DNA of 41,203 bases, taken from IMG/VR virus record IMGVR_UViG_3300032116_000478, positions 1 through 41,203 of that record; one strand, given 5' to 3'. A program made the translations under genes and the position numbers. Position 1 is the stretch's first letter, and every line of letters starts with the position of its first letter. This DNA is from a virus. Its lineage: Duplodnaviria; Caudoviricetes. The notes under the pieces are model-generated. The model was not told where the DNA came from and did no database searches. It worked only from the letters and a program-made list of their open reading frames with translations. Shown one piece after another: positions 1-40,412 of this stretch.

Positions 1-229
1 GACCGACTTGCGCAGTGTGGACGGCATCGGCCGTCTTCGGATGCGTATCGACCCTACGCTGTACCATGCCTGGGGCACGAAGTACGGCTACGACTGCTGG
101 AAGGACTCGCAGTTCCTGAAGGAGATCGAGCGCGACAACCCGGAGGTTAGGGTTAAGTGCGGGGGTACACGCTTGCAGGTCGGTTGGCAAGGTGGCACAA
201 AGAGGAGCAGTCAGAAGTTCACTTTATGA
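1..229 (+). CDS. 5'-truncated copy of the hypothetical protein downstream of the capsid gene (full copy 38329-38709)
   Basis: Identical to the C-terminus of the 38329-38709 ORF. Confidence 0.85.
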   Translation, partial: TDLRSVDGIGRLRMRIDPTLYHAWGTKYGYDCWKDSQFLKEIERDNPEVRVKCGGTRLQVGWQGGTKRSSQKFTL

Positions 230-480
230 ATGTTGGCTCTAATCGTCAGCTCGCCGGCGAGTTCGGCGGCAAATACATCACCGCGGCCGACGGTACGGTG
301 AGCGGCAACTGGATGGAGATCCATGCCGTCTCGACGTCGATCCTGTCGGGCTGCACGTCCAACATCACCGGCTTGGGCTCTGGCGTGACCATACAGGCCG
401 GCGATTCGATCTCCGGTGTGTTCACCTCGCTCGCTCTGAGCAGCGGCGGTATCGTGGCGTACAACCGCAAGTGGGTCTAA
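226..480 (+). CDS. Small virion/structural hypothetical protein
   Basis: ATGA overlap with upstream stop; G/S/T-rich beta-type sequence MNVGSNRQLAGEF..., in the structural module. Confidence 0.75.
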   Translation: MNVGSNRQLAGEFGGKYITAADGTVSGNWMEIHAVSTSILSGCTSNITGLGSGVTIQAGDSISGVFTSLALSSGGIVAYNRKWV

Positions 481-483
481 TCA

Positions 484-720
484 ATGAGACTGGGACTAGG
501 CCTCGGCGTTGACGTCCAGCGGTTCGCTGGCGGCGGCGGCGGTGCGGACTATCCCATACTGCGGCGTGACTTGCTGCAGGAGGACGAGTTCTTTGTTCTG
601 CTGGAGAATGGCACTGACAAGATCGTCATCACCTTCGGCACTTTCGATTCTTTGCTCTTGGAAAGCGGGGACTTCCTGCTCCAGGAGGACACAGGCAAAC
701 TGATCATCCAAGCAAACTAG
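484..720 (+). CDS. Small structural protein with two LLxExGxxLLxE-type repeats
   Basis: 78-aa ORF; MRLGLGLG N-terminus; DLLQEDEFFVLLENG and LLLESGDFLLQEDTG repeats. Confidence 0.75.
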   Translation: MRLGLGLGVDVQRFAGGGGGADYPILRRDLLQEDEFFVLLENGTDKIVITFGTFDSLLLESGDFLLQEDTGKLIIQAN

Positions 721-723
721 CAT

Positions 724-1935
724 ATGGCAGACACGAAAATCACGGCCTTGGCGGCCATCACCACCGTCGATCCCGCGGCAGACGTTCTGCCGATTGTGGA
801 CGTCTCCGATACGTCGATGGCGGCGTCGGGCACCACGAAGAAGATCACCTCCAATCAGATCCTCGGAGCCGGCGGCACCGCCACCCTCGCCTCCGCCACC
901 ATCACCGGCGACCTGACGGTTCGAACGAACAAGCTGGCGGTTACTTCGACTGGTGTGGGTGCTGGCACTGCGAGTCCGACCAATCTGTTTACAATCGGCA
1001 CTGGCACTTATTCAGTAGCTGCTGCTTCCGGTACAGCGTCGATGTATGCAACGGTTGCTCAAGGGTTGGTGGTGCTTTCGGATGCTGTCACTTTTGCATC
1101 TAGGACTGGAGGCGACAAACTTCTGCTCGACTCCTCCGGCAACGTCGGCGTGGGGGTTACGCCGAGTGCGTGGCATAGCACTTACAAGGCGTTCCAGATT
1201 GGTGCTGGTGGATCTGTTGCATACACGACTGATACCACTGGATATTCGTTTCTCCTTAACAATGCGTATTACGATGGAACAAATTGGTTGCGATTGATCG
1301 GAACCGCTGGAACTCCTGTTGCTGCTACCGCATACAGCCAAAATCAGGGACAACATCAATGGCTTTACGCAGGAACCGGGACGGCAGCATCTACGATCAC
1401 CTGGACAACCGGGATGACGCTGGATGCGAGTGGGAATCTGTTGGTGGGGAAGACGGCTCTTAGCGATACCACTGTTGGTTGGTATGTCAGACCGAATGGC
1501 ATCACAACCGCAACGATGTCTTCTTCTGTTAATACTGATACAAGCTATCAACTTTATTCAACTGGTGCATCAGCTTATCGTTTCTATGTCGGAATGGGAG
1601 GCACTGTGTACGCCACCAACACGACGATTTCTGCAATCTCAGATGCTCGCTTGAAGGAGAACGTGCAGGACATCGACGTTGGTCTTGATGCCATCCTCGC
1701 CCTCAAGCCCCGCAAGTTCGATTGGAAGACTGGAAAAGGTAAGAACATCAAGGGAGACCGTGGTTTCATCGCTCAGGAGTTTGAAACCGTGTTCCCGAAC
1801 CTGATCGACGAGTGGAAAGATCCTGCCCCTGAAGGAGAGGCTCCTTACAAGTCCGTTCGCCAAGACCTCATTCCTGTGCTGGTGAAGGCCATCCAAGAAC
1901 TCGCCGCTGAAGTCAACGCTCTGAAGAACGCCTAA
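724..1935 (+). CDS. Tail fibre/spike with C-terminal intramolecular chaperone (peptidase S74-like), allele A
   Basis: T/G/S-rich fibre repeats (GNVGVG, GNLLVG); SDARLKENV autocleavage motif, GFIAQE, terminal coiled coil LVKAIQEL. Confidence 0.9.
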   Translation: MADTKITALAAITTVDPAADVLPIVDVSDTSMAASGTTKKITSNQILGAGGTATLASATITGDLTVRTNKLAVTSTGVGAGTASPTNLFTIGTGTYSVAAASGTASMYATVAQGLVVLSDAVTFASRTGGDKLLLDSSGNVGVGVTPSAWHSTYKAFQIGAGGSVAYTTDTTGYSFLLNNAYYDGTNWLRLIGTAGTPVAATAYSQNQGQHQWLYAGTGTAASTITWTTGMTLDASGNLLVGKTALSDTTVGWYVRPNGITTATMSSSVNTDTSYQLYSTGASAYRFYVGMGGTVYATNTTISAISDARLKENVQDIDVGLDAILALKPRKFDWKTGKGKNIKGDRGFIAQEFETVFPNLIDEWKDPAPEGEAPYKSVRQDLIPVLVKAIQELAAEVNALKNA

Positions 1936-10323: not shown

Positions 10324-12165
10324 ATGGCAACCTACGGCTATTCCACACCATACACCGGACAGCAGGTGCAGACGCTGCCACCCGGCTATCTGGAGGCCGC
10401 AACCGCTCCTGGACGCAACCTGGCGATGGGCATTGCTGCCATGGGTCAGGGCCTCGGGAAGGCCATCGAGCAGTATCGCACCAAGAAGGCTGAGACCGAG
10501 GCTGCCACACAGAGCTGGGAGACTGTCTCCGGGCTGATGCAGCAGCAGTTGGCTTCGGACCCCAAGTACCTTGCCATTCAGCAGTACATGGAGACCGGTG
10601 CGCTCCCACAAGGCGTCACCGAGCAGGATATCCCGCGGTACACCCAGCAGGTGCAGGCCGACCGGGAGATGCTCAACAAGTTCTCGGCTCTCGGTGAGAA
10701 GTTTCCGGACATGAGCCTTGCCAAGAAGAAGGCGGCTCTTGGGGACGCTGTGATGGTGCTGAACCAGTACCGGACGGATCAGCAGAATCAGGTGCGCGAT
10801 GCGGCGGCTAGGCAGCAGTTGAGACTCGTTGAGTTGCAGTTGCAGGAGGCTCAAGACAAACGCAGGCAGAATGAGATCCTGACCAGTGCCATCAGATACG
10901 GCTTGGAACAGCCGACGACGACCACTCAGACGCAGCAGGTCACCGATACGATTGAGTTCCCACCGATGCCGGGTGTTCCTACGCCTGCCGTTCAATCAAC
11001 TCCGTCTCAGGCTGAAGCCACTGCTGCACGCTATTTCATGGGGCGCTACGGTCAGGCAGCTCAACAGCTTCAGCAGTACGGTGCCGGACTTGGAAGACAG
11101 GCAAACGCATTGAACGTGTCTCAAACGCCAAGATTTACTGGGCCTATTTCACTCGGCCAGGAAGACAATGAGGCGTATCTCAGTCAGCAGTTTGAATCTC
11201 CTATTGAGGCTGCGGCTAGGGCTGAAGCAAACACCCGCCTGAAGGAACAGCAGCTTGCCGAGTCTCAAGCGGCTCTTCAGCAGGCTGGAATCATGTCTAG
11301 GTCGCCTGCATTGAAGACGATTGGGCCTCGGACTTTGCAGCCTGCTCAAGAGACTGCTCCTATGCAGCAGCCTCCCGAGACGATCACGCGCAATGTTTCG
11401 ACTCAGGTTCCTATCAGCTATGAGGACCAGTCAAAGAGGCTGACGCAGTTCTTGGTTCAACAGGGTGCCAAGCCTGAGACGATTGCCATGGTTCCGCAGA
11501 TTCTGTCTATGGTCGGACAGCAGAGGCCTACCCGCGTTGAGCAGGTTGGAAACATTGGTTCTGTGGTTCGCTTTGGTAATGACAAGGAGCAGTTCGTTCC
11601 TGCAAAGGAGGCGAACATTGGAGATATGCTGAAGGTCAGGGGCCTGACCATCGACTTCCCTGAGTTCCGCGGAACTGCTCCTACTGAAGCCGAGGCTTCC
11701 AAGTTCCGCGAACAATATTCCAACGTGCTTGATAGCCGTAAGGCAATCGCTGAACTGTTGGACATCGCAAAAATGGGTACTGCTATGCAGCAGACCCCTG
11801 AGGTGAGGGCACGAGCCAACTCATTAGCTTCAGGTCTTCGAGGAATTGAACGCATCAACATTATTGGTCCGGGAACCATAACTCCTGAAGATTTCAAGCT
11901 GCTGAATAGCGTGATTCCAGATCCGACTTCAATTTTCTCGCTGAAGAAGTCGAACATTCAGGCGTTTGAGACGATGCTGCAAAAGTCTGCTAGGGCTATT
12001 GAATCAAGAGCCAAATCCATTGGACTTGAGGTGCTGAAGCCTGATCAGCAACAGACTGTTTCATCACTGTTGAACGACCCGAGAGTGGCTTCTATTCGCG
12101 CCCGAGCAGCTTCTGGCGCGATCACCCGCCAACAAGCCGCTCAAGAACTTAAATCTATCCAATGA
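10324..12165 (+). CDS. Putative DNA ejection/internal virion protein
   Basis: 613 aa; Q/A-rich helical with Gly-rich amphipathic N-terminus; precedes the giant ejection protein. Confidence 0.7.
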   Translation: MATYGYSTPYTGQQVQTLPPGYLEAATAPGRNLAMGIAAMGQGLGKAIEQYRTKKAETEAATQSWETVSGLMQQQLASDPKYLAIQQYMETGALPQGVTEQDIPRYTQQVQADREMLNKFSALGEKFPDMSLAKKKAALGDAVMVLNQYRTDQQNQVRDAAARQQLRLVELQLQEAQDKRRQNEILTSAIRYGLEQPTTTTQTQQVTDTIEFPPMPGVPTPAVQSTPSQAEATAARYFMGRYGQAAQQLQQYGAGLGRQANALNVSQTPRFTGPISLGQEDNEAYLSQQFESPIEAAARAEANTRLKEQQLAESQAALQQAGIMSRSPALKTIGPRTLQPAQETAPMQQPPETITRNVSTQVPISYEDQSKRLTQFLVQQGAKPETIAMVPQILSMVGQQRPTRVEQVGNIGSVVRFGNDKEQFVPAKEANIGDMLKVRGLTIDFPEFRGTAPTEAEASKFREQYSNVLDSRKAIAELLDIAKMGTAMQQTPEVRARANSLASGLRGIERINIIGPGTITPEDFKLLNSVIPDPTSIFSLKKSNIQAFETMLQKSARAIESRAKSIGLEVLKPDQQQTVSSLLNDPRVASIRARAASGAITRQQAAQELKSIQ

Positions 12166-15100
12166 CCCTATCCCAAGCGGACATCGACTCGTTGCTCGGG
12201 CCTGAACCAGCAGACAGCGTCGAAAGCCTGCTGGATGCCCCATTGACCGGCGAGGACATCTCGCTGGCGATGCAAGACCCGTCATTCACTCCTAGCAAGA
12301 GTGACTACCTGAAGTACGAGGAGTACGCCAAGACCAAGCAGACCGATTGGATCAACACTGCTGCTCAGGCCGCTGATGCTGCCATCGGAATGATTGGCAG
12401 TGCTGTTTCTCAGGGAGCTCAAGGAGCTGCTGCAAACCCTCTGAACTACATTGAGGGATTTGCCCAAGGAACTCGCCAGCTCTATGGCCTTGCGGCTCAG
12501 TCGCAAGACCCATCGTCACCGCTCTTCAAGTTCAAGGATCTAGTGGCAGGCACTGGCACCGAGGAATCGCGCTATCAGCAGTTCCTTGATGCGCGAGACT
12601 TTGCCAACACAACCGCCCGTCTTGAGCGTGGTGAAGAGGGTGTGATTGTTCCGCCTGAGTACACCAACCCGGAGTATGTGCAGGGCGTGTCGCTGATTCT
12701 CGACCCGACCCTGTTCGTTCCAGGTGTTGGTGAGATCCTTGGTGCTGGCAAACTGTCGGCAAAAGCTGTCGGCAAGGGCGCACAGCTTGCGGGACGTGCT
12801 GTTGCTGGCGTTGCAAAGCCTCTGGAGCGCTTTGCAGGCGCTGCCGAGCGCATGACAGCGGAAGCGCTTGGAATGACGCCAGAAGCGCTTCGCACCGCTG
12901 CTTCAACAGCCGGTGTTGCTGGTGCTCTTGGAATTGCTCCAGAGGCCGCAGCTTTTGCCGCTATCCCTGCCGGTATCCGTACCGCACGCGAGGCTGGTGA
13001 AGCACTGGCAATGGCCGGCGAGAACCTGATGACCCAGCCTTCCCGTGTTGGTCCATTGCAGGCCATCGGTGCCGCTCCGGGCGCCAACCTGCGCCAGCGT
13101 ATGCTGGGTGTGATCGGTCAGTACGGCGGAGATGCCGCGGTCGACGCTGCTCTGCGAGGCACTGCCGGTGGACTAGAGGGTGCCGTGTTGGGAACCGGCA
13201 TCGGATACCTTTCCGGTGGCGAGGAAGGCGCTGCTGCTGGACTCGGATCTGGTGCTGCTCAAGGTGCTCTTGGTGCTCTCGGTGGCCGTGCTTACCAGAA
13301 GCTCACCGGCAAGGCTGCCGCGGAAGCCCGTGCTGGAGACTTGGGGCGATTCATTGAAGGCCTGCAAGATCCGACGACCAAAGGCCTTTTCGAGCGTGTC
13401 CGAGATACGCACGGAGTCGATGCAGCCTCGGCGCTGATGGATGTTGAAGGACTGGTCAAAGGCCGGTTCGGTGATGTCGACATCAAGTACCTGTCGGACG
13501 TTGACTTCGTTGATCAGTACAAGGGCCGTGCCCGTGGCGTGCAGGTTGAGATTGGAGACCGACCGACCATCGTCATCAATGCCGACATCCTCGGCAAAGG
13601 CAAAGGCGACAGCCCCCTCTACACGCTGGGCCATGAGCTGTTCCATGCTCTTGAAAAGAGCGAGCAGCTCTCAGGTGGTGCCACCGAGATCAAGAACGCT
13701 CTTGTCGGTCGCTGGATTCAGGAAGGCGACGTCATTCGAAAGCTGGCCGATGGCGTTTTTAATGACGCCGAGATTGAGGCTAGGTTCAATGAGTACCGCG
13801 ACAAGCTGGCTGCTGGTAATGCCCAGCGTGCTGCAGAACTTGCCCAGTTCGACACGATCAACAAGAAGGCCGACTACATCGCTTCGGAGCTGGCTGCGGA
13901 ACACTTCGCAGCACTGATTGCTGGTCAGAAGCCTGATGCGATGCTCAAGGGCTTCTCAGGTCTTACTAGGCAGCTTCTTGACGCTGCGCTGACTCAGAAC
14001 GCCAGCAAGGCAATCGCCAACGCTGCCGCGGCTATTGAGCGCACCTTCGGCGTGAAACCGACAGACTCGGTGCTGTTCCCGGATCTGAAGCAGGCCTCGC
14101 CTCAGATCAACGCCATGCTGCGTGACCTGGTGCGTGCCCGTCGCAAGCTGGACGAGAAGATCATGCTAGACGACAGCCGCGGTGGCCGCGTGCTGAAGCC
14201 GGAGGATGTTTCTAACCCGTTGGCGGCTAAGGAACTGGTCGACCTTGGATTGGCCGAGCAGATGCCCGATGGAAGCATCAGGAACCTTTCTAGCGAAGAG
14301 ATCCGAGCACGCGACGACAAGGATCTGACATCGTTGCGATCCATTACCGAGAAGATTCCTGGAGCCAGACTTGTCGACGGTGAAATCACTGGTCGATTCA
14401 GCCCCGAGCAGCTCAGTGCCATCGAGCAATCGCAGACGATCAGCTCCCGGATGAAGGACAAGATCCGTGCCGTCAATTTGGCAATGGAGAATGGCAACAG
14501 CTTGTTCGTCACTTACTTTGCAGCACTTCGCCGAGTGAGGAATAGGCTCACTGGTAAGGATTCGCCCAAATACAGCAGCGGAATCAAAGTCAGCGAACGG
14601 GAGTTCTCTCCGTACAGTTTCTGGATCACAAAGGCTGACAATCCGGTGGTCAGGGCCATCGACATCACCAAGGTCCGAAACGAACTCAGCAAGCTGCTGA
14701 AGAAGGATGGAAGCATCGGTGGCCTGTGGAGCAACACAGATGGATTTATGACCGATCTGGCGAGGTACTTCACCAACCTCGACCAGAAAGAAGGTGCTCG
14801 CCGTTCCGCTGAGATCTTCGGAGTTGAGAAGGCCAAGTTCCTCGGTGACTTCGTAGGCGCTGCTGAGAAGAGCGGAAGCAAGTTCGTTCGCAGCTTCCGG
14901 CTGGATCGTGTTGGCTCGATGACTCCGATGGACTTCAAAGCGAAGTTCTCCGAGGAAGCCTACCAGCTATCGAAGCAGCGCTGGATGCCTGCCGAGACCA
15001 TCGGAGACAAGCTGGTCACCAACTCCGACGAGGGCTACCGCATTGTCAGCGGCGCCAAGCACCGACTCTACGGTCCCGACGGCAAGCTGATCGGGATCTA

Positions 15101-17954
15101 CGACACCCAAACCCAAGCAGAAAGGAAAGCAGATGCCACTCAAGCAAGGCTACAGCCAGAAGTCGATCAGCAGCAACGTGTCCCGGGAGATGAAGGCCGG
15201 CAAACCGCAGAAGCAGGCGGTGGCAATCGCGCTCTCGGTGGCACGGAAGGCGGCCAAGAAGGCCGGCAAGCCGACCGGACGGTTCGACAAGCGGGGGATG
15301 TGAGGTTCATGCCGATGTCGGATCTTGAACGGTCTGACATCGACTTGCGCATCAGCACCCGCAACCCGTCTGCCAAGAAGGCGACCGAGAACCCACTTAC
15401 ACAGCAGTTGTCGATTGACCTTGAGTCGATCACGCGCACTCCAGGTGCTTTGCCAGAAATCATCAACACGGTTGGGAAGTATCCTGGAATCAAGTTTGAG
15501 CGGTCTGGCTCAATGAACCGTGCGAAAGACTTCATTCGGTTCGTTGCAGACAACCTGATTTACCTGCACGACAGCGTTCAGCCTGAGATCAGGGATAGGT
15601 CGAAGCTCTGGTATGATGGAGCCAGAAAACTGACCGAGGATTGGTCGAAGCGATTCGACACCACCCGCGAAGGTGTTGCCGGAGTGATCGCATCGTTGTC
15701 TCCTCAGAAGGACTGGTATCAAAACGTGACCCTTGCGGAGAGGGTTTTCGAGGTTGTCAAAACCAAGCAGAACGAGGCGTTTACTGGGCCACTGGAGCAG
15801 TGGGCACGCAGCAAGATGACCTCTGGTCAAAGCCCGAAGCGCTTGGTTCAGGATGAGGTTATCAACGGCATGGCTGGGAAGAAGTTCTCTCAGCTTTCAG
15901 ACTATGAAAAGGCGGTCTTCGTTCGTGCATTTGATGAGGTCAACAACACCAGGACCTATCCAATCGTGTCTCCCGAAGGCAAGATGCTGGATATCGCTAG
16001 GAAGGCCGATGGAACGCCTGCAACCTATGCTTGGGGCGACTTCAATTCGATAGCCAAAGCGGTCAAGATTGCCGGAGATCCGACGAAGAAAACGATCTCT
16101 GAATCGCTAGGATACGAGCACAAGGTCCGCTCGTTCTACGACAACATCCTGCTCCCAAACAACCCGGAGCATGGAGATGTCACCATCGACACGCACGCCG
16201 TGGCCGCAGCGTTGATGCTGCCGCTTGCTGGTTCGGACGTGTATGTGGCGCACAACTTTGGACAGGGAGTCCCTGGAAGCAGCGTTTATGGAACCAGCGG
16301 CACCTATGGCATCTACGCTGATGCCTACAGACTTGCAGCCAAGGAACGCGGAATCCTTCCCCGTGAAATGCAGTCGATTACCTGGGAGGCAGTCCGAGGG
16401 CTGTTCACGCCAGAGTTCAAGACTGCTGGAAATAAAAAGTTGGTTGAAAACATCTGGAAAGAGTACAAGTCAGGAAAGGCCACCATTGATGAAACAAGAC
16501 AGCGCATCGTCGACACGGCAGGCGGAATCCGCAACCCAAGCTGGTTCGGATCCGGTGGTGCAGCAGTTGCGGAAAATGCGCCTGCCGTTAACCCGCGCCA
16601 ACTACCTGGCGCTGGCAATATGGGAGAATCGGGAGCCAACGCCGGAGGAGGAAGCAACCTTTCCAGAGCAGGTGCGCCGGAAGTAGGCAGCCAGCGCTTC
16701 ATGCCATCCGACACCGACTACCTGTCCGCGGTGAAAGCTGGCGACACGGCTGCCGCGCAGCGGATGGTCGATGAGGCGGCTAATGCGGCGGGGTACACGG
16801 TTGGGCCGGTGTGGCATGGTGGAGCAAAGCCGACGGTGTTCAACGTTCGCGCCGGAGAGAAGACATCAAGGCACGAATCGTCAGCACTTGGTTCATTTTT
16901 CTCTGATTCAGAAGAAACCGCGTCTCAATACGGAAACACTGCTCCGTATTTCCTGCGCATTGAAAACCCAATTGAACTCTCAGAAAGAGAGCAGTCCGCA
17001 TTGGATACCGTAGCGAAGGCGAGACTGTTCAGAATGAAGGCAAAGCAAGATGGGTTTGATGGGGCTATTATTAGGACTCAGGATGCGCCTGGATTCAAAG
17101 GAGGTACAGAATACGTTGCCTTCGACCCAACCCAGATCAAATCCGCCGAGCCAATCACCCGCGACAATCAAGGCAACGTCATCCCGCTCTCGCAGCGCTT
17201 CCAGACGAGCAGCGCGGATATCCGGTTCATGCCGGAGTCCATCCAACGCGACATCGGCCGCAATCAGGACTTCGCCAACCCGCCTACGGACACCGAGGCT
17301 GTCGATGCTTTGAGCTCGGAGAAAAAGGCAAAGTTTGGTGCTGCCAGAAACATCAAACCGGGCACTCAGGTGGCAGCACGCATCGACATCCCGGCCTTCC
17401 TGAGAACCGGAAAGTATGTGGTCGCTGTGCACGAGCCTGATGGCGCTGCTGGTGGACCTGGTAAGGTGATCGGATACGATACCGTGACCCGTTTGCAGAA
17501 CCCGAAGTTTGTGGTCAAACCCGGCGTGCAACGGATCTACGAGGGCAAGTCCGCCAAGTTCCCGGTGGCAACTGTCGACGGCAAGATCATGGCCGACAGA
17601 TCCATCCCGGATGACTTGGAGAACTATGTGCCAGTCGGTATGGACCCGAAGGAACACGCCTACTTCTACGACAAGCGCACCGATCAGCCCGTCATCGGTG
17701 GCTCTGAGTCTGTGAGCGTAGGCAACACGGTGTTCGTGAAGAACCCGGTGTATGGCGATCCCAGCCAGTTTGCCTTCATGCCCTCCCCCGACTCCTCGAT
17801 GCCCGGCGCCTACTCGTTCACCGGAGGCTACCGCGCACTTCCAGGAAAATCGAAAGGCAGCCTGCGGATTTACAGCCCTGCCGGCAGCCTGATCGGCATC
17901 GCGGCCAGCCTTGACGAGGCGCAGCGCATCATCCGAAAGAAGGCCAAGCAATGA
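12162..17954 (+). CDS. Large polyvalent ejection protein: Gly/Ala membrane-type region, zincin metallopeptidase-like domain, HhH-glycosylase-like domain, ADP-ribosyltransferase-like (ART-PolyVal) domain, unknown domains
   Basis: 1930 aa; LGHELFHALE (13632-13646) plus downstream ELAAE; WY...ASLSPQ..W..NV...KVRSFYDNI...VTIDTHA...MQSITW; AQRMVDEAA..AGY..VWHG...GFDG..EYVAFDPTQIKSA...IPLSQRF. Confidence 0.85.
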   Translation: MTLSQADIDSLLGPEPADSVESLLDAPLTGEDISLAMQDPSFTPSKSDYLKYEEYAKTKQTDWINTAAQAADAAIGMIGSAVSQGAQGAAANPLNYIEGFAQGTRQLYGLAAQSQDPSSPLFKFKDLVAGTGTEESRYQQFLDARDFANTTARLERGEEGVIVPPEYTNPEYVQGVSLILDPTLFVPGVGEILGAGKLSAKAVGKGAQLAGRAVAGVAKPLERFAGAAERMTAEALGMTPEALRTAASTAGVAGALGIAPEAAAFAAIPAGIRTAREAGEALAMAGENLMTQPSRVGPLQAIGAAPGANLRQRMLGVIGQYGGDAAVDAALRGTAGGLEGAVLGTGIGYLSGGEEGAAAGLGSGAAQGALGALGGRAYQKLTGKAAAEARAGDLGRFIEGLQDPTTKGLFERVRDTHGVDAASALMDVEGLVKGRFGDVDIKYLSDVDFVDQYKGRARGVQVEIGDRPTIVINADILGKGKGDSPLYTLGHELFHALEKSEQLSGGATEIKNALVGRWIQEGDVIRKLADGVFNDAEIEARFNEYRDKLAAGNAQRAAELAQFDTINKKADYIASELAAEHFAALIAGQKPDAMLKGFSGLTRQLLDAALTQNASKAIANAAAAIERTFGVKPTDSVLFPDLKQASPQINAMLRDLVRARRKLDEKIMLDDSRGGRVLKPEDVSNPLAAKELVDLGLAEQMPDGSIRNLSSEEIRARDDKDLTSLRSITEKIPGARLVDGEITGRFSPEQLSAIEQSQTISSRMKDKIRAVNLAMENGNSLFVTYFAALRRVRNRLTGKDSPKYSSGIKVSEREFSPYSFWITKADNPVVRAIDITKVRNELSKLLKKDGSIGGLWSNTDGFMTDLARYFTNLDQKEGARRSAEIFGVEKAKFLGDFVGAAEKSGSKFVRSFRLDRVGSMTPMDFKAKFSEEAYQLSKQRWMPAETIGDKLVTNSDEGYRIVSGAKHRLYGPDGKLIGIYDTQTQAERKADATQARLQPEVDQQQRVPGDEGRQTAEAGGGNRALGGTEGGQEGRQADRTVRQAGDVRFMPMSDLERSDIDLRISTRNPSAKKATENPLTQQLSIDLESITRTPGALPEIINTVGKYPGIKFERSGSMNRAKDFIRFVADNLIYLHDSVQPEIRDRSKLWYDGARKLTEDWSKRFDTTREGVAGVIASLSPQKDWYQNVTLAERVFEVVKTKQNEAFTGPLEQWARSKMTSGQSPKRLVQDEVINGMAGKKFSQLSDYEKAVFVRAFDEVNNTRTYPIVSPEGKMLDIARKADGTPATYAWGDFNSIAKAVKIAGDPTKKTISESLGYEHKVRSFYDNILLPNNPEHGDVTIDTHAVAAALMLPLAGSDVYVAHNFGQGVPGSSVYGTSGTYGIYADAYRLAAKERGILPREMQSITWEAVRGLFTPEFKTAGNKKLVENIWKEYKSGKATIDETRQRIVDTAGGIRNPSWFGSGGAAVAENAPAVNPRQLPGAGNMGESGANAGGGSNLSRAGAPEVGSQRFMPSDTDYLSAVKAGDTAAAQRMVDEAANAAGYTVGPVWHGGAKPTVFNVRAGEKTSRHESSALGSFFSDSEETASQYGNTAPYFLRIENPIELSEREQSALDTVAKARLFRMKAKQDGFDGAIIRTQDAPGFKGGTEYVAFDPTQIKSAEPITRDNQGNVIPLSQRFQTSSADIRFMPESIQRDIGRNQDFANPPTDTEAVDALSSEKKAKFGAARNIKPGTQVAARIDIPAFLRTGKYVVAVHEPDGAAGGPGKVIGYDTVTRLQNPKFVVKPGVQRIYEGKSAKFPVATVDGKIMADRSIPDDLENYVPVGMDPKEHAYFYDKRTDQPVIGGSESVSVGNTVFVKNPVYGDPSQFAFMPSPDSSMPGAYSFTGGYRALPGKSKGSLRIYSPAGSLIGIAASLDEAQRIIRKKAKQ
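15133..15303 (+). CDS. Nested +1-frame gene: small basic protein MPLKQGYSQKSISSNVSREMKAGKPQKQAVAIALSVARKAAKKAGKPTGRFDKRGM
   Basis: Read manually (56 aa, not in the ORF track); AAAGGA at 15121-15126 before the ATG; matches the MPLKxGxSxxxISxN...GKPQKQAVAIALS pattern of stand-alone small phage genes. Confidence 0.8.
   Translation: MPLKQGYSQKSISSNVSREMKAGKPQKQAVAIALSVARKAAKKAGKPTGRFDKRGM
16489..16686 (+). CDS. Nested +1-frame gene: 65-aa protein ...DPVVQQLRKMRLPLTRANYLALAIWENREPTPEEEATFPEQVRRK
   Basis: AGGAAAGG ~9 nt upstream of the ATG; protein-like C-half while the host frame is a G/A-rich linker; stops 5 nt before the QRFMP junction. Confidence 0.68.
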   Translation: MKQDSASSTRQAESATQAGSDPVVQQLRKMRLPLTRANYLALAIWENREPTPEEEATFPEQVRRK

Positions 17955-38328: not shown

Positions 38329-38709
38329 ATGAATCAGAACGCTTCCTCAGTCATTGCAAACGCTCTGGACGATCTTCCCGGAGATCTGCGCCGTGCGGTC
38401 ATCAAGGAGTTCGAAAAAGGCATCCAGAAGGACTGGGTGCAGGCCGGCATCCAGCAGAAGCGGATCGCCAAGGACTCGCAGACCGACTTGCGCAGTGTGG
38501 ACGGCATCGGCCGTCTTCGGATGCGTATCGACCCTACGCTGTACCATGCCTGGGGCACGAAGTACGGCTACGACTGCTGGAAGGACTCGCAGTTCCTGAA
38601 GGAGATCGAGCGCGACAACCCGGAGGTTAGGGTTAAGTGCGGGGGTACACGCTTGCAGGTCGGTTGGCAAGGTGGCACAAAGAGGAGCAGTCAGAAGTTC
38701 ACTTTATGA
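38329..38709 (+). CDS. Hypothetical protein (head-module)
   Basis: ATG after the terminator; YGYDCWKDSQFLKEIERDNPE motif. Confidence 0.8.
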   Translation: MNQNASSVIANALDDLPGDLRRAVIKEFEKGIQKDWVQAGIQQKRIAKDSQTDLRSVDGIGRLRMRIDPTLYHAWGTKYGYDCWKDSQFLKEIERDNPEVRVKCGGTRLQVGWQGGTKRSSQKFTL

Positions 38710-38960
38710 ATGTTGGCTCTAATCGTCAGCTCGCCGGCGAGTTCGGCGGCAAATACATCACCGCGGCCGACGGTACGGTGAGCGGCAACTGGATGGAGAT
38801 CCATGCCGTCTCGACGTCGATCCTGTCGGGCTGCACGTCCAACATCACCGGCTTGGGCTCTGGCGTGACCATACAGGCCGGCGATTCGATCTCCGGTGTG
38901 TTCACCTCGCTCGCTCTGAGCAGCGGCGGTATCGTGGCGTACAACCGCAAGTGGGTCTAA
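38706..38960 (+). CDS. Small structural hypothetical protein (copy of 226-480)
   Basis: Within the repeat. Confidence 0.75.
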   Translation: MNVGSNRQLAGEFGGKYITAADGTVSGNWMEIHAVSTSILSGCTSNITGLGSGVTIQAGDSISGVFTSLALSSGGIVAYNRKWV

Positions 38961-38963
38961 TCA

Positions 38964-39200
38964 ATGAGACTGGGACTAGGCCTCGGCGTTGACGTCCAGC
39001 GGTTCGCTGGCGGCGGCGGCGGTGCGGACTATCCCATACTGCGGCGTGACTTGCTGCAGGAGGACGAGTTCTTTGTTCTGCTGGAGAATGGCACTGACAA
39101 GATCGTCATCACCTTCGGCACTTTCGATTCTTTGCTCTTGGAAAGCGGGGACTTCCTGCTCCAGGAGGACACAGGCAAACTGATCATCCAAGCAAACTAG
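38964..39200 (+). CDS. Small structural protein with LLxE repeats (copy of 484-720)
   Basis: Within the repeat. Confidence 0.75.
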   Translation: MRLGLGLGVDVQRFAGGGGGADYPILRRDLLQEDEFFVLLENGTDKIVITFGTFDSLLLESGDFLLQEDTGKLIIQAN

Positions 39201-39203
39201 CAT

Positions 39204-40412
39204 ATGGCAGACACGAAAATCACGGCCTTGGCGGCCATCACCACCGTCGATCCCGCGGCAGACGTTCTGCCGATTGTGGACGTCTCCGATACGTCGATGG
39301 CGGCGTCGGGCACCACGAAGAAGATCACCTCCAATCAGATCCTCGGAGCCGGCGGCACCGCCACCCTCGCCTCCGCCACCATCACCGGCGACCTGACGGT
39401 TCGAACGAACAAGCTGGCGGTTACTTCGACTGGTGTGGGTGCTGGCACTGCGAGTCCGACCAATCTGTTTACAATCGGCACTGGCACTTATTCAGTAGCT
39501 GCTGCTTCCGGTACAGCGTCGATGTATGCAACGGTTGCTCAAGGGTTGGTGGTGCTTTCGGATGCTGTCACTTTTGCATCTAGGACTGGAGGCGACAAAC
39601 TTCTGCTCGACTCCTCCGGCAACGTCGGCGTGGGGGTTACGCCGAGTGCGTGGCATAGCACTTACAAGGCGTTCCAGATTGGTGCTGGTGGATCTGTTGC
39701 ATACACGACTGATACCACTGGATATTCGTTTCTCCTTAACAATGCGTATTACGATGGAACAAATTGGTTGCGATTGATCGGAACCGCTGGAACTCCTGTT
39801 GCTGCTACCGCATACAGCCAAAATCAGGGACAACATCAATGGCTTTACGCAGGAACCGGGACGGCAGCATCTACGATCACCTGGACAACCGGGATGACGC
39901 TGGATGCGAGTGGGAATCTGTTGGTGGGGAAGACGGCTCTTAGCGATACCACTGTTGGTTGGTATGTCAGACCGAATGGCATCACAACCGCAACGATGTC
40001 TTCTTCTGTTAATACTGATACAAGCTATCAACTTTATTCAACTGGTGCATCAGCTTATCGTTTCTATGTCGGAATGGGAGGCACTGTGTACGCCACCAAC
40101 ACGACGATTTCTGCAATCTCAGATGCTCGCTTGAAGGAGAACGTGCAGGACATCGACGTTGGTCTTGATGCCATCCTCGCCCTCAAGCCCCGCAAGTTCG
40201 ATTGGAAGACTGGAAAAGGTAAGAACATCAAGGGAGACCGTGGTTTCATCGCTCAGGAGTTTGAAACCGTGTTCCCGAACCTGATCGACGAGTGGAAAGA
40301 TCCTGCCCCTGAAGGAGAGGCTCCTTACAAGTCCGTTCGCCAAGACCTCATTCCTGTGCTGGTGAAGGCCATTCAGGAACTCACCGCCCGTGTTGAAGCA
40401 CTCGAAGCCTAA
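39204..40412 (+). CDS. Tail fibre with S74-like chaperone, allele B
   Basis: Identical protein to 724-1935 except the last residues (TARVEALEA vs AAEVNALKNA). Confidence 0.9.
   Translation: MADTKITALAAITTVDPAADVLPIVDVSDTSMAASGTTKKITSNQILGAGGTATLASATITGDLTVRTNKLAVTSTGVGAGTASPTNLFTIGTGTYSVAAASGTASMYATVAQGLVVLSDAVTFASRTGGDKLLLDSSGNVGVGVTPSAWHSTYKAFQIGAGGSVAYTTDTTGYSFLLNNAYYDGTNWLRLIGTAGTPVAATAYSQNQGQHQWLYAGTGTAASTITWTTGMTLDASGNLLVGKTALSDTTVGWYVRPNGITTATMSSSVNTDTSYQLYSTGASAYRFYVGMGGTVYATNTTISAISDARLKENVQDIDVGLDAILALKPRKFDWKTGKGKNIKGDRGFIAQEFETVFPNLIDEWKDPAPEGEAPYKSVRQDLIPVLVKAIQELTARVEALEA

Follow-up and report, generated by a model that had tools for sequence, protein, structure and literature searches.

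A small phage gene preserved by selection in a shifted frame of a polyvalent ejection-type gene

Can a very large phage gene conceal a second, functional gene in another of its reading frames, and, if so, which of the two frames is under selection, what does the small product do and how did it come to lie there? These questions are raised by the IMG/VR virus record IMGVR_UViG_3300032116_000478 (Duplodnaviria; Caudoviricetes), all 41,203 nucleotides of which were analyzed and are referred to here as the window, a phage contig with a guanine-plus-cytosine (GC) content of 58% that has terminase, SU10-type capsid, DnaB and tail genes aboard. Its plus strand contains an open reading frame (ORF) at 12162-17954 for a 1,930-residue protein of putative polyvalent ejection type (the host gene and protein), and wholly within this ORF, in the +1 frame, lies nested gene 1 (15133-15303, plus strand), which begins with an ATG at 15133, runs for 56 codons and ends with a TGA (15301-15303) that shares bases with the host codons GTG AGG, the V-R of a VRFMP motif. 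As in a nested gene pair, the inner ORF lies inside the outer one but is read in a different frame and has a start and a stop of its own; it was absent from the ORF list because 56 residues fall under the 60-residue cut-off. An earlier note on this DNA had described the 56-residue ORF, the AAAGGA element six nucleotides upstream and the TGA on the V-R codons, all of which are confirmed in the sequence, and had proposed that a usually free-standing phage gene, still selected, was engulfed here when flanking modules fused in frame. Nested gene 1 is, on the evidence given below, almost certainly a real and selected gene.

Selection in the two overlapping frames

The nested product is a member of the phrog_2423 family (E = 1.2e-19, 71 bits, residues 1-44 aligned on a 52-position profile), which matches 380 phage records and has no other copy in the window; at E ≤ 0.001, 2,937 of 3,002 candidate proteins are its relatives. 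Among the best 80 viral loci retrieved with the small protein as query, a free-standing gene is present in 74 and a nested one in six, which bears out the view of the earlier note that the family usually stands free.

Within the overlap, ratios of non-synonymous to synonymous substitution (dN/dS; NG86 method, pairwise and therefore non-independent comparisons of 39 sequences) are 0.19 for the small frame and 2.9 for the host frame, and in the upstream control they are 0.185 for the host frame and 2.0 for the +1 frame. Upstream of the overlap most variation is at host third positions (61 of 80) and, within it, at host first positions (24 of 42). In an allele test that counted each allele once, 186 redundant loci gave 102 haplotypes, in which the small frame showed 54 of its 82 possible synonymous changes against 47 of 251 non-synonymous ones (p = 7e-15) and none of 15 stops, while the host frame over the same stretch shows no such preference (22/94 synonymous versus 79/243 non-synonymous, p = 0.11). 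The host frame is nevertheless kept open: among changes synonymous in the small frame, none of the eight that would stop the host was seen, versus 52 of the 72 that only alter a host residue (p = 1e-4), and in free copies of the gene the host-equivalent frame is open in just 14 of 72 cases (6 of 13 at GC ≥ 55%). Given these dN/dS values, the allele counts and the rarity of an open frame in free copies, the small protein sequence is under purifying selection and the host frame is selected only to stay open, one lineage excepted. Selection thus acts on both members of the nested pair, on the amino-acid sequence of the inner and on the openness of the outer, and the host-frame linker over nested gene 1 (15132-15302, plus strand) is an acidic segment with an isoelectric point (pI) of 4.65 that is kept open without purifying selection at the amino-acid level.

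These results bear directly on the proposal that nested gene 1 is no more than a chance frame, or a relic in decay, that persists only because the host linker is conserved. In fact, +1-frame ORFs of at least 35 codons are common in these GC-rich genes (245 in tails and 181 in cores), as such a proposal would have it. It is, however, the host frame that is unconstrained, the 102 haplotypes contain no stop in the small frame, and the length of the linker varies in multiples of three nucleotides (49, 52 and 56 codons); together with the contradictory dN/dS and allele tests, this makes a relic or chance origin extremely improbable, and the claim of the earlier note that the frame is no accident and is still selected stands.

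Also significant is the retention of the arrangement among relatives, for which loci were fetched with the host protein and not with the small protein, to avoid selecting for the nested ORF; the resulting sets overlap one another and include near-copies. When the 90 host residues upstream were used, 44 of 45 loci keep the ATG, the open frame, the stop and an open host frame, the remaining one being cut by a contig end. A wider host alignment gave 63 loci, mostly on the same contigs with the addition of a 27-28% lineage, of which 61 keep nested gene 1 and two are cut. Among 79 metagenome loci, the window's own excluded, 72 keep the nested gene with read-through of the host frame, two keep it with a host stop and five are cut. 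The pattern that would have spoken against the gene, a linker that persists while the ATG or the open frame is lost, was looked for and does not occur in the informative host-flank loci; the AGGA element, however, is present in only some of the leaders, as described below.

Several individual loci deserve mention. In L274 the host frame terminates where the small gene ends, the small gene is kept and no cargo follows; P0448, a cluster sibling of L274, does have cargo. L274 (6146-6310) and L332 (2648-2818) carry divergent nested variants that contain Cys residues and a second-helix Tyr. In P0293, seen as protein only, the linker is kept about 200 residues downstream, after a cargo insertion, and a single IMG/VR contig contributes both L095 and L108, two different host-gene copies each with a nested ORF, which reflect either a chimera or a duplication.

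Translation and role of the nested product

The leader of nested gene 1 (15117-15132, plus strand) is A-rich, with AAAGGA at 15121-15126, six nucleotides before the ATG, and ties as the most A-rich among the 52 +1-frame ATG leaders within the host gene. An AGGA element occurs in 69 of 109 distinct nested leaders, and the other 40 are A-rich without it. Because the leaders that lack AGGA are nonetheless A-rich, and because a Shine-Dalgarno-like motif is found at only three of the 23 gene starts examined in the window, the A-rich leader is probably the start signal shared by the nested copies. A search of 14600-16800 for sigma-70-type promoters found none (0.8 expected), and no stable RNA structure is predicted at the start or junction of nested gene 1 (z = 0.29). 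Contigs from riverine RNA libraries (four runs, small shares) are scattered over host and nested regions alike, one of them spanning 14970-15288; such contigs cannot reveal strand, level or translation, and nothing is concluded from them. Translation of nested gene 1 from its own start on a late mRNA is likely.

Two other ways of decoding the locus were weighed. In the first, a programmed +1 frameshift would decode the small frame and yield a short ejection protein, consisting of the core and a basic tail, beside the long cargo-bearing form. The +1 frame is open for 42 nucleotides upstream of the ATG, core-only proteins such as P0345, P0358, P0369, P0383 and P0387 exist, and in the database proteins P0123 and P0125 the family is fused behind an HExxH-containing domain (although their starts may be mis-called). 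Against this, no informative host-flank locus has lost the ATG or the N-terminus proper to the family, +1 stops lie six to seven codons upstream in L245 and L268, and the junction sequence is lineage-specific, with no common slippery motif and no stable structure; a frameshift is accordingly very improbable. In the second, the act of translation itself would matter, with the stop of the small ORF coupling ribosomes to the Met of the RFMP motif so that the cargo is also made separately. That Met codon (15309) lies five nucleotides past the small stop, and the loci with a host stop, L314 and L315, retain an intact long cargo ORF. Coupling accounts poorly for the strong amino-acid-level selection on the small protein, and many relatives have other residues before the next FMP or have the Met replaced, which leaves this alternative improbable as well.

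Translation from its own start being preferred, the product would be a 56-residue protein with 14 Lys and Arg versus 2 Asp and Glu (pI 11.2, net charge about +11.5). The AlphaFold2 model is a two-helix hairpin (residues 9-21 and 26-43) with a loose, predicted disordered, basic tail and a mean predicted local distance difference test score (pLDDT) of 80, and among the invariant positions are numerous hairpin residues of small size or hydrophobic character (A29, A31, A33, L34 and A37), while the length and charge of the tail vary. Searches among solved structures yielded no relative (best E 1.1 by sequence and 7.9 with Foldseek), VIA-align of the model gave at best a Z of 5.2, to generic hairpins, and BFVD returned uncharacterized phage relatives and two further rows, a Nudix-domain protein and a prohead protease, none at E ≤ 0.001. 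In Pfam no family matched at E ≤ 0.01, and no DNA-binding family is among the matches. The protein does not reach the gathering cut-off of DUF6496 (PF20106; 15.1 bits, E = 0.03, cut-off 24 bits). The likeness to DUF6496 is weak and confined to the second helix; it is found at E ≤ 1 in 18 of 35 aligned members (best 0.0026), and an Atlas neighbor cluster is 31% DUF6496, which would make this domain at most a distant relative.

The context of the family points to the phage head. Forty-one of the 74 free copies have a relative of coat, portal, terminase, Mu-F or P22 gp4 within 2 kb; PB1 ORF19, also phrog_2423, follows the head-morphogenesis gene, and the family forms the N-terminus of the head maturation protease gp26 of BcepB1A. 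ORF22 of the Pbunavirus SCUT-S1 belongs to phrog_2423 (E = 1.3e-28), and this protein was detected by mass spectrometry in ghost particles depleted of DNA by LiCl/DNase treatment, with 7 peptides and a coverage of 77% (PMC6521218, Table 1). Pa193 gp21 (7.4 kDa, Mascot 288), whose orthology is assigned by synteny and equal gene length only, is listed as detected in mature virions and was not placed in the cryo-EM model (PMC11456595, supplement). Beneath the hexons of Pa193 that work also describes a trimeric density of about 16 residues to which no protein is assigned (PMC11456595, section 8). These members of PHROG 2423, a family of unknown function, share with the nested copy their sequence family, a head-module context and homologues in virions; they differ in that they are free-standing or fused in frame, whereas the window copy lies entirely within another gene, in a different frame, and has a more basic product.

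The earlier note had suggested a DNA-binding or condensing peptide, or a regulatory one. In its strongest form this would mean that nested gene 1 is translated, but that its product is a charge-neutralizing, DNA-condensing peptide or an in-cell DNA-binding regulator, with no specific docking in the head. The high charge and pI and the Lys/Ala-rich tail are as expected of such a peptide, and a few free copies lie near DnaB (4/74) or ParB (3/74) genes. The invariant positions, however, include many in the hairpin, while the tail varies in length and charge, no DNA-binding family of Pfam is matched, and the virion-detected homologue, only mildly basic (13 Lys and Arg, 10 Asp and Glu) and so nearly neutral, remains in ghosts depleted of DNA. 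We therefore consider this alternative unlikely: pure condensation is weakened, nothing supports a regulatory peptide, and contact between the tail and DNA is retained as a conjecture. A hairpin that docks in the head is favored, since the virion-detected homologue is mildly basic while the hairpin residues are invariant. The product of nested gene 1 is, by homology, probably internal to the virion, where a 6-kDa helical hairpin would be packed inside the head and might dock on capsid, scaffold or portal, and its lysine-rich tail may contact the DNA in this lineage.

Origin and spread of the nested arrangement

Embedded genes are known from other phages, such as lambda Rz1 in Rz and phiX174 E in D, which resemble the present locus in that an entire small gene occupies the +1 frame of a longer gene, with neither frame lost. 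In those pairs the inner gene is usually regarded as overprinted and both frames are constrained in sequence, whereas in the window the inner gene is old and widespread and the outer frame is an open spacer. De novo overprinting predicts a younger and more restricted inner gene, and the reverse is found: 74 of 80 loci hold the inner family as a free gene, and the linker occurs in this group alone. Of the two frames the inner one is clearly the more ancient, the linker in the host being a by-product, which preserves one part of the engulfment proposed earlier.

A profile of the linker finds 115 of 120 close host proteins (three of the five misses end before the linker point) versus 16 of 143 more distant ones. 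Nested gene 1 marks the border between a conserved core of about 990 or 1,085 residues and a cargo specific to each relative. The 60 residues before it, module A at the end of the core (14952-15131, plus strand), are paralogous to the C-terminal module of the host protein (31%, E = 2e-6), both copies being present in most relatives, and several distant relatives end exactly at module A. Because module A resembles a C-terminal module and distant relatives end there, its end was plausibly once a C-terminus. On an unrooted FastTree tree of the core, built from the 88 of 102 picked host proteins with the HExxH anchor, the linker requires at least three changes and appears in three separate host-core lineages, which indicates capture followed by recombinational spread. 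At L346 and L347 the small genes are 98.4% identical in nucleotides over 126 nt, and the upstream cores are 28% identical in protein. Free copies sit directly behind other large genes, one of which (L067) has a weak ART-PolyVal match. The junction reads TAT-G in 19 of 66 loci; its derivation by loss of one nucleotide from a TAATG overlap is speculation, no such ancestor having been found.

In the history that we envisage, translation of a core-only ejection gene would have run on, in another frame, across a free copy lying behind it, the extension so made would have become a linker to swappable cargo, joined at RFMP, and the block of linker and small gene would then have spread between core lineages by recombination. 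The mechanism as a whole (a conserved nested phrog_2423 gene, translated from its own start, encoding a head-internal docking hairpin and bearing this read-through history) is the one we favor, with moderate confidence.

A number of observations weigh against it. L314 and L315 (2 of 74 informative loci, one lineage) have a host-frame stop inside the linker, so that read-through is not indispensable; at both loci (L314, 1406-1564; L315, 3902-4060) a change synonymous for the small protein creates a host stop and leaves the small gene and a long downstream cargo ORF intact. Most distant host relatives join core to cargo without this linker, and fusion of the flanks therefore did not need this event, a part of the earlier engulfment proposal that does not hold. 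The ancestral order, with the stop of this core directly before a free copy, was not found, the search for it giving only L274 and nothing for the core-only P0387. With respect to the head, 33 of 74 free copies lack any reference head gene within 2 kb, and the virion-detected homologues are myovirus proteins that match at only 55% over 38 residues. Finally, free copies are also T-poor at would-be-stop sites (170/517 versus 419/896), part of the avoidance of host stops therefore being dinucleotide bias, and the AGGA element is missing from the 40 leaders noted above.

The host gene, its cargo and a second nested gene

The host protein consists of a conserved core of about 990 residues, a variable cargo and a conserved C-terminal module B (17775-17954, plus strand), the copy paralogous to module A being placed at 17742-17954. 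The core contains an HExxH motif (13632-13646, plus strand), which we take to be metallopeptidase-like, with H491, E492 and H495 invariant in alignment A3. From the RFMP junction (15303-15314, plus strand) onward the cargo of relatives differs, with tails of 513-1,620 residues where complete; in the window it includes a DUF7178 domain (15357-16544, plus strand) with a predicted HhH-GPD DNA-glycosylase-like fold and an ART-PolyVal domain (16809-17150, plus strand; PF18760, 45.6 bits against a cut-off of 31.2). The host polypeptide thus unites several conflict-related features, ART-PolyVal and DUF7178 above cut-off in addition to the HExxH motif. An R/A-F/W-M-P motif recurs at module borders (host residues 941, 1049, 1513, 1689 and 1872), where relatives swap cargo, and could be a cleavage or recombination signal. 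The flank of the host gene has no match among cultured phage records.

Large size, modular construction, an ART-PolyVal domain, an HExxH motif and swappable cargo are shared with the phage polyvalent proteins (Iyer et al., 2017, PMC5512222), among them phi24B gp47. The latter has been proposed as a packaged ejection protein (bioRxiv 10.64898/2026.04.10.717836), and by this analogy, and from its position among tail and virion genes, the host protein may be packaged and ejected with the DNA. The searched passages of PMC5512222 contain no nested genes and neither 'overlap' nor 'stop codon', in contrast to the window, whose linkers carry small genes. No literature on this family or on nesting in polyvalent genes was found, only general papers on overlapping genes, in a search that most subscription papers lay outside.

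Nested gene 2 (16489-16686, plus strand) is a 65-residue +1-frame partner of DUF7178 with AGGAAAGG upstream, and it has no match in PHROG, Pfam or cultured phage records. Among 80 DUF7178 loci, five are cut; of the 75 complete ones, 72 have the same +1-frame partner and three showed no motif. Within the partner the DUF7178 gene comes to a stop in 42 of the 72 and reads through in 30, and GC is 0.60 for the read-through loci versus 0.48 for the stopped ones; both states of the read-through process are therefore visible for a single gene pair. Between the window and L272, the nested product is identical at 52 of 65 residues and the host frame at 42 of 65.

The DUF7178 model (pLDDT 88) compares best with 3n0u (Z = 8.8, root-mean-square deviation 3.8 Å, 184 aligned residues), a middling Z for a helical protein; the top 20 structural rows consist entirely of DNA glycosylases and DUF2419 queuine salvage enzymes, and the best glycosylase found by Foldseek has an E of 0.34. 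The predicted complex of DUF7178 with the product of nested gene 2 scores 0.84 versus 0.00 for the best control; of 157 solved pairs 116 reach that mark, and of 215 mismatched pairs 2 do. At least 95% of contacts agree between runs, and the partner pLDDT is 82. The product is predicted to bind the active-site face of DUF7178, with contacts that include the invariant P116, Q117, K234, K256, D278 and T279, and the model suggests that it may act as an inhibitor. Effector-immunity and toxin-antitoxin cassettes also couple a small gene tightly behind an enzyme domain to which its product binds, as is predicted here; nested gene 2 differs in that the partner can be buried within the enzyme-bearing gene.

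Comparable ORFs occur elsewhere. Downstream of DUF7178 in L161, two small +1 ORFs lie in tandem inside the read-through host frame, and candidate nested +1 ORFs end other cargo modules in L259 (7303-7500), L230 (7693-7884), L215 (4173-4349), L219 (7702-7902) and L223 (7807-8016), most with purine-rich leaders and each common to 3-17 loci, with no PHROG match at E < 0.01. At the contig ends, window positions 1-1892 and 38481-40372 form a direct repeat of 1,892 identical bases, followed by divergence near the 3' end of a tail-fiber gene, which would reflect either a circular genome of about 38.5 kb with two variant fiber ends or two strains assembled together.

The nesting described here is reversed from the textbook direction, with the old gene inside and the new frame as the outer spacer, and this reversal is well supported. 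More tentatively, polyvalent ejection genes may grow by read-through of small genes behind captured modules, their linkers being shifted-frame shadows of live genes; the giant gene would then be a hidden operon that supplies a factor for head packaging (nested gene 1) and pairs every harmful cargo domain with a matching inhibitor, which the producing cell would make but which would not be injected (nested gene 2 for the DNA-glycosylase-like effector). The predicted glycosylase-inhibitor pair is testable in E. coli, and nested gene 1 offers a testable handle on a family of unknown function in therapeutic PB1-like phages. Calling the giant gene risks dropping the small one, so that virion components and candidate enzyme inhibitors may be missed in abundant uncultured phages. 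Nested gene 1 itself is kept by selection across many related freshwater phages, and its family is widespread in phages.

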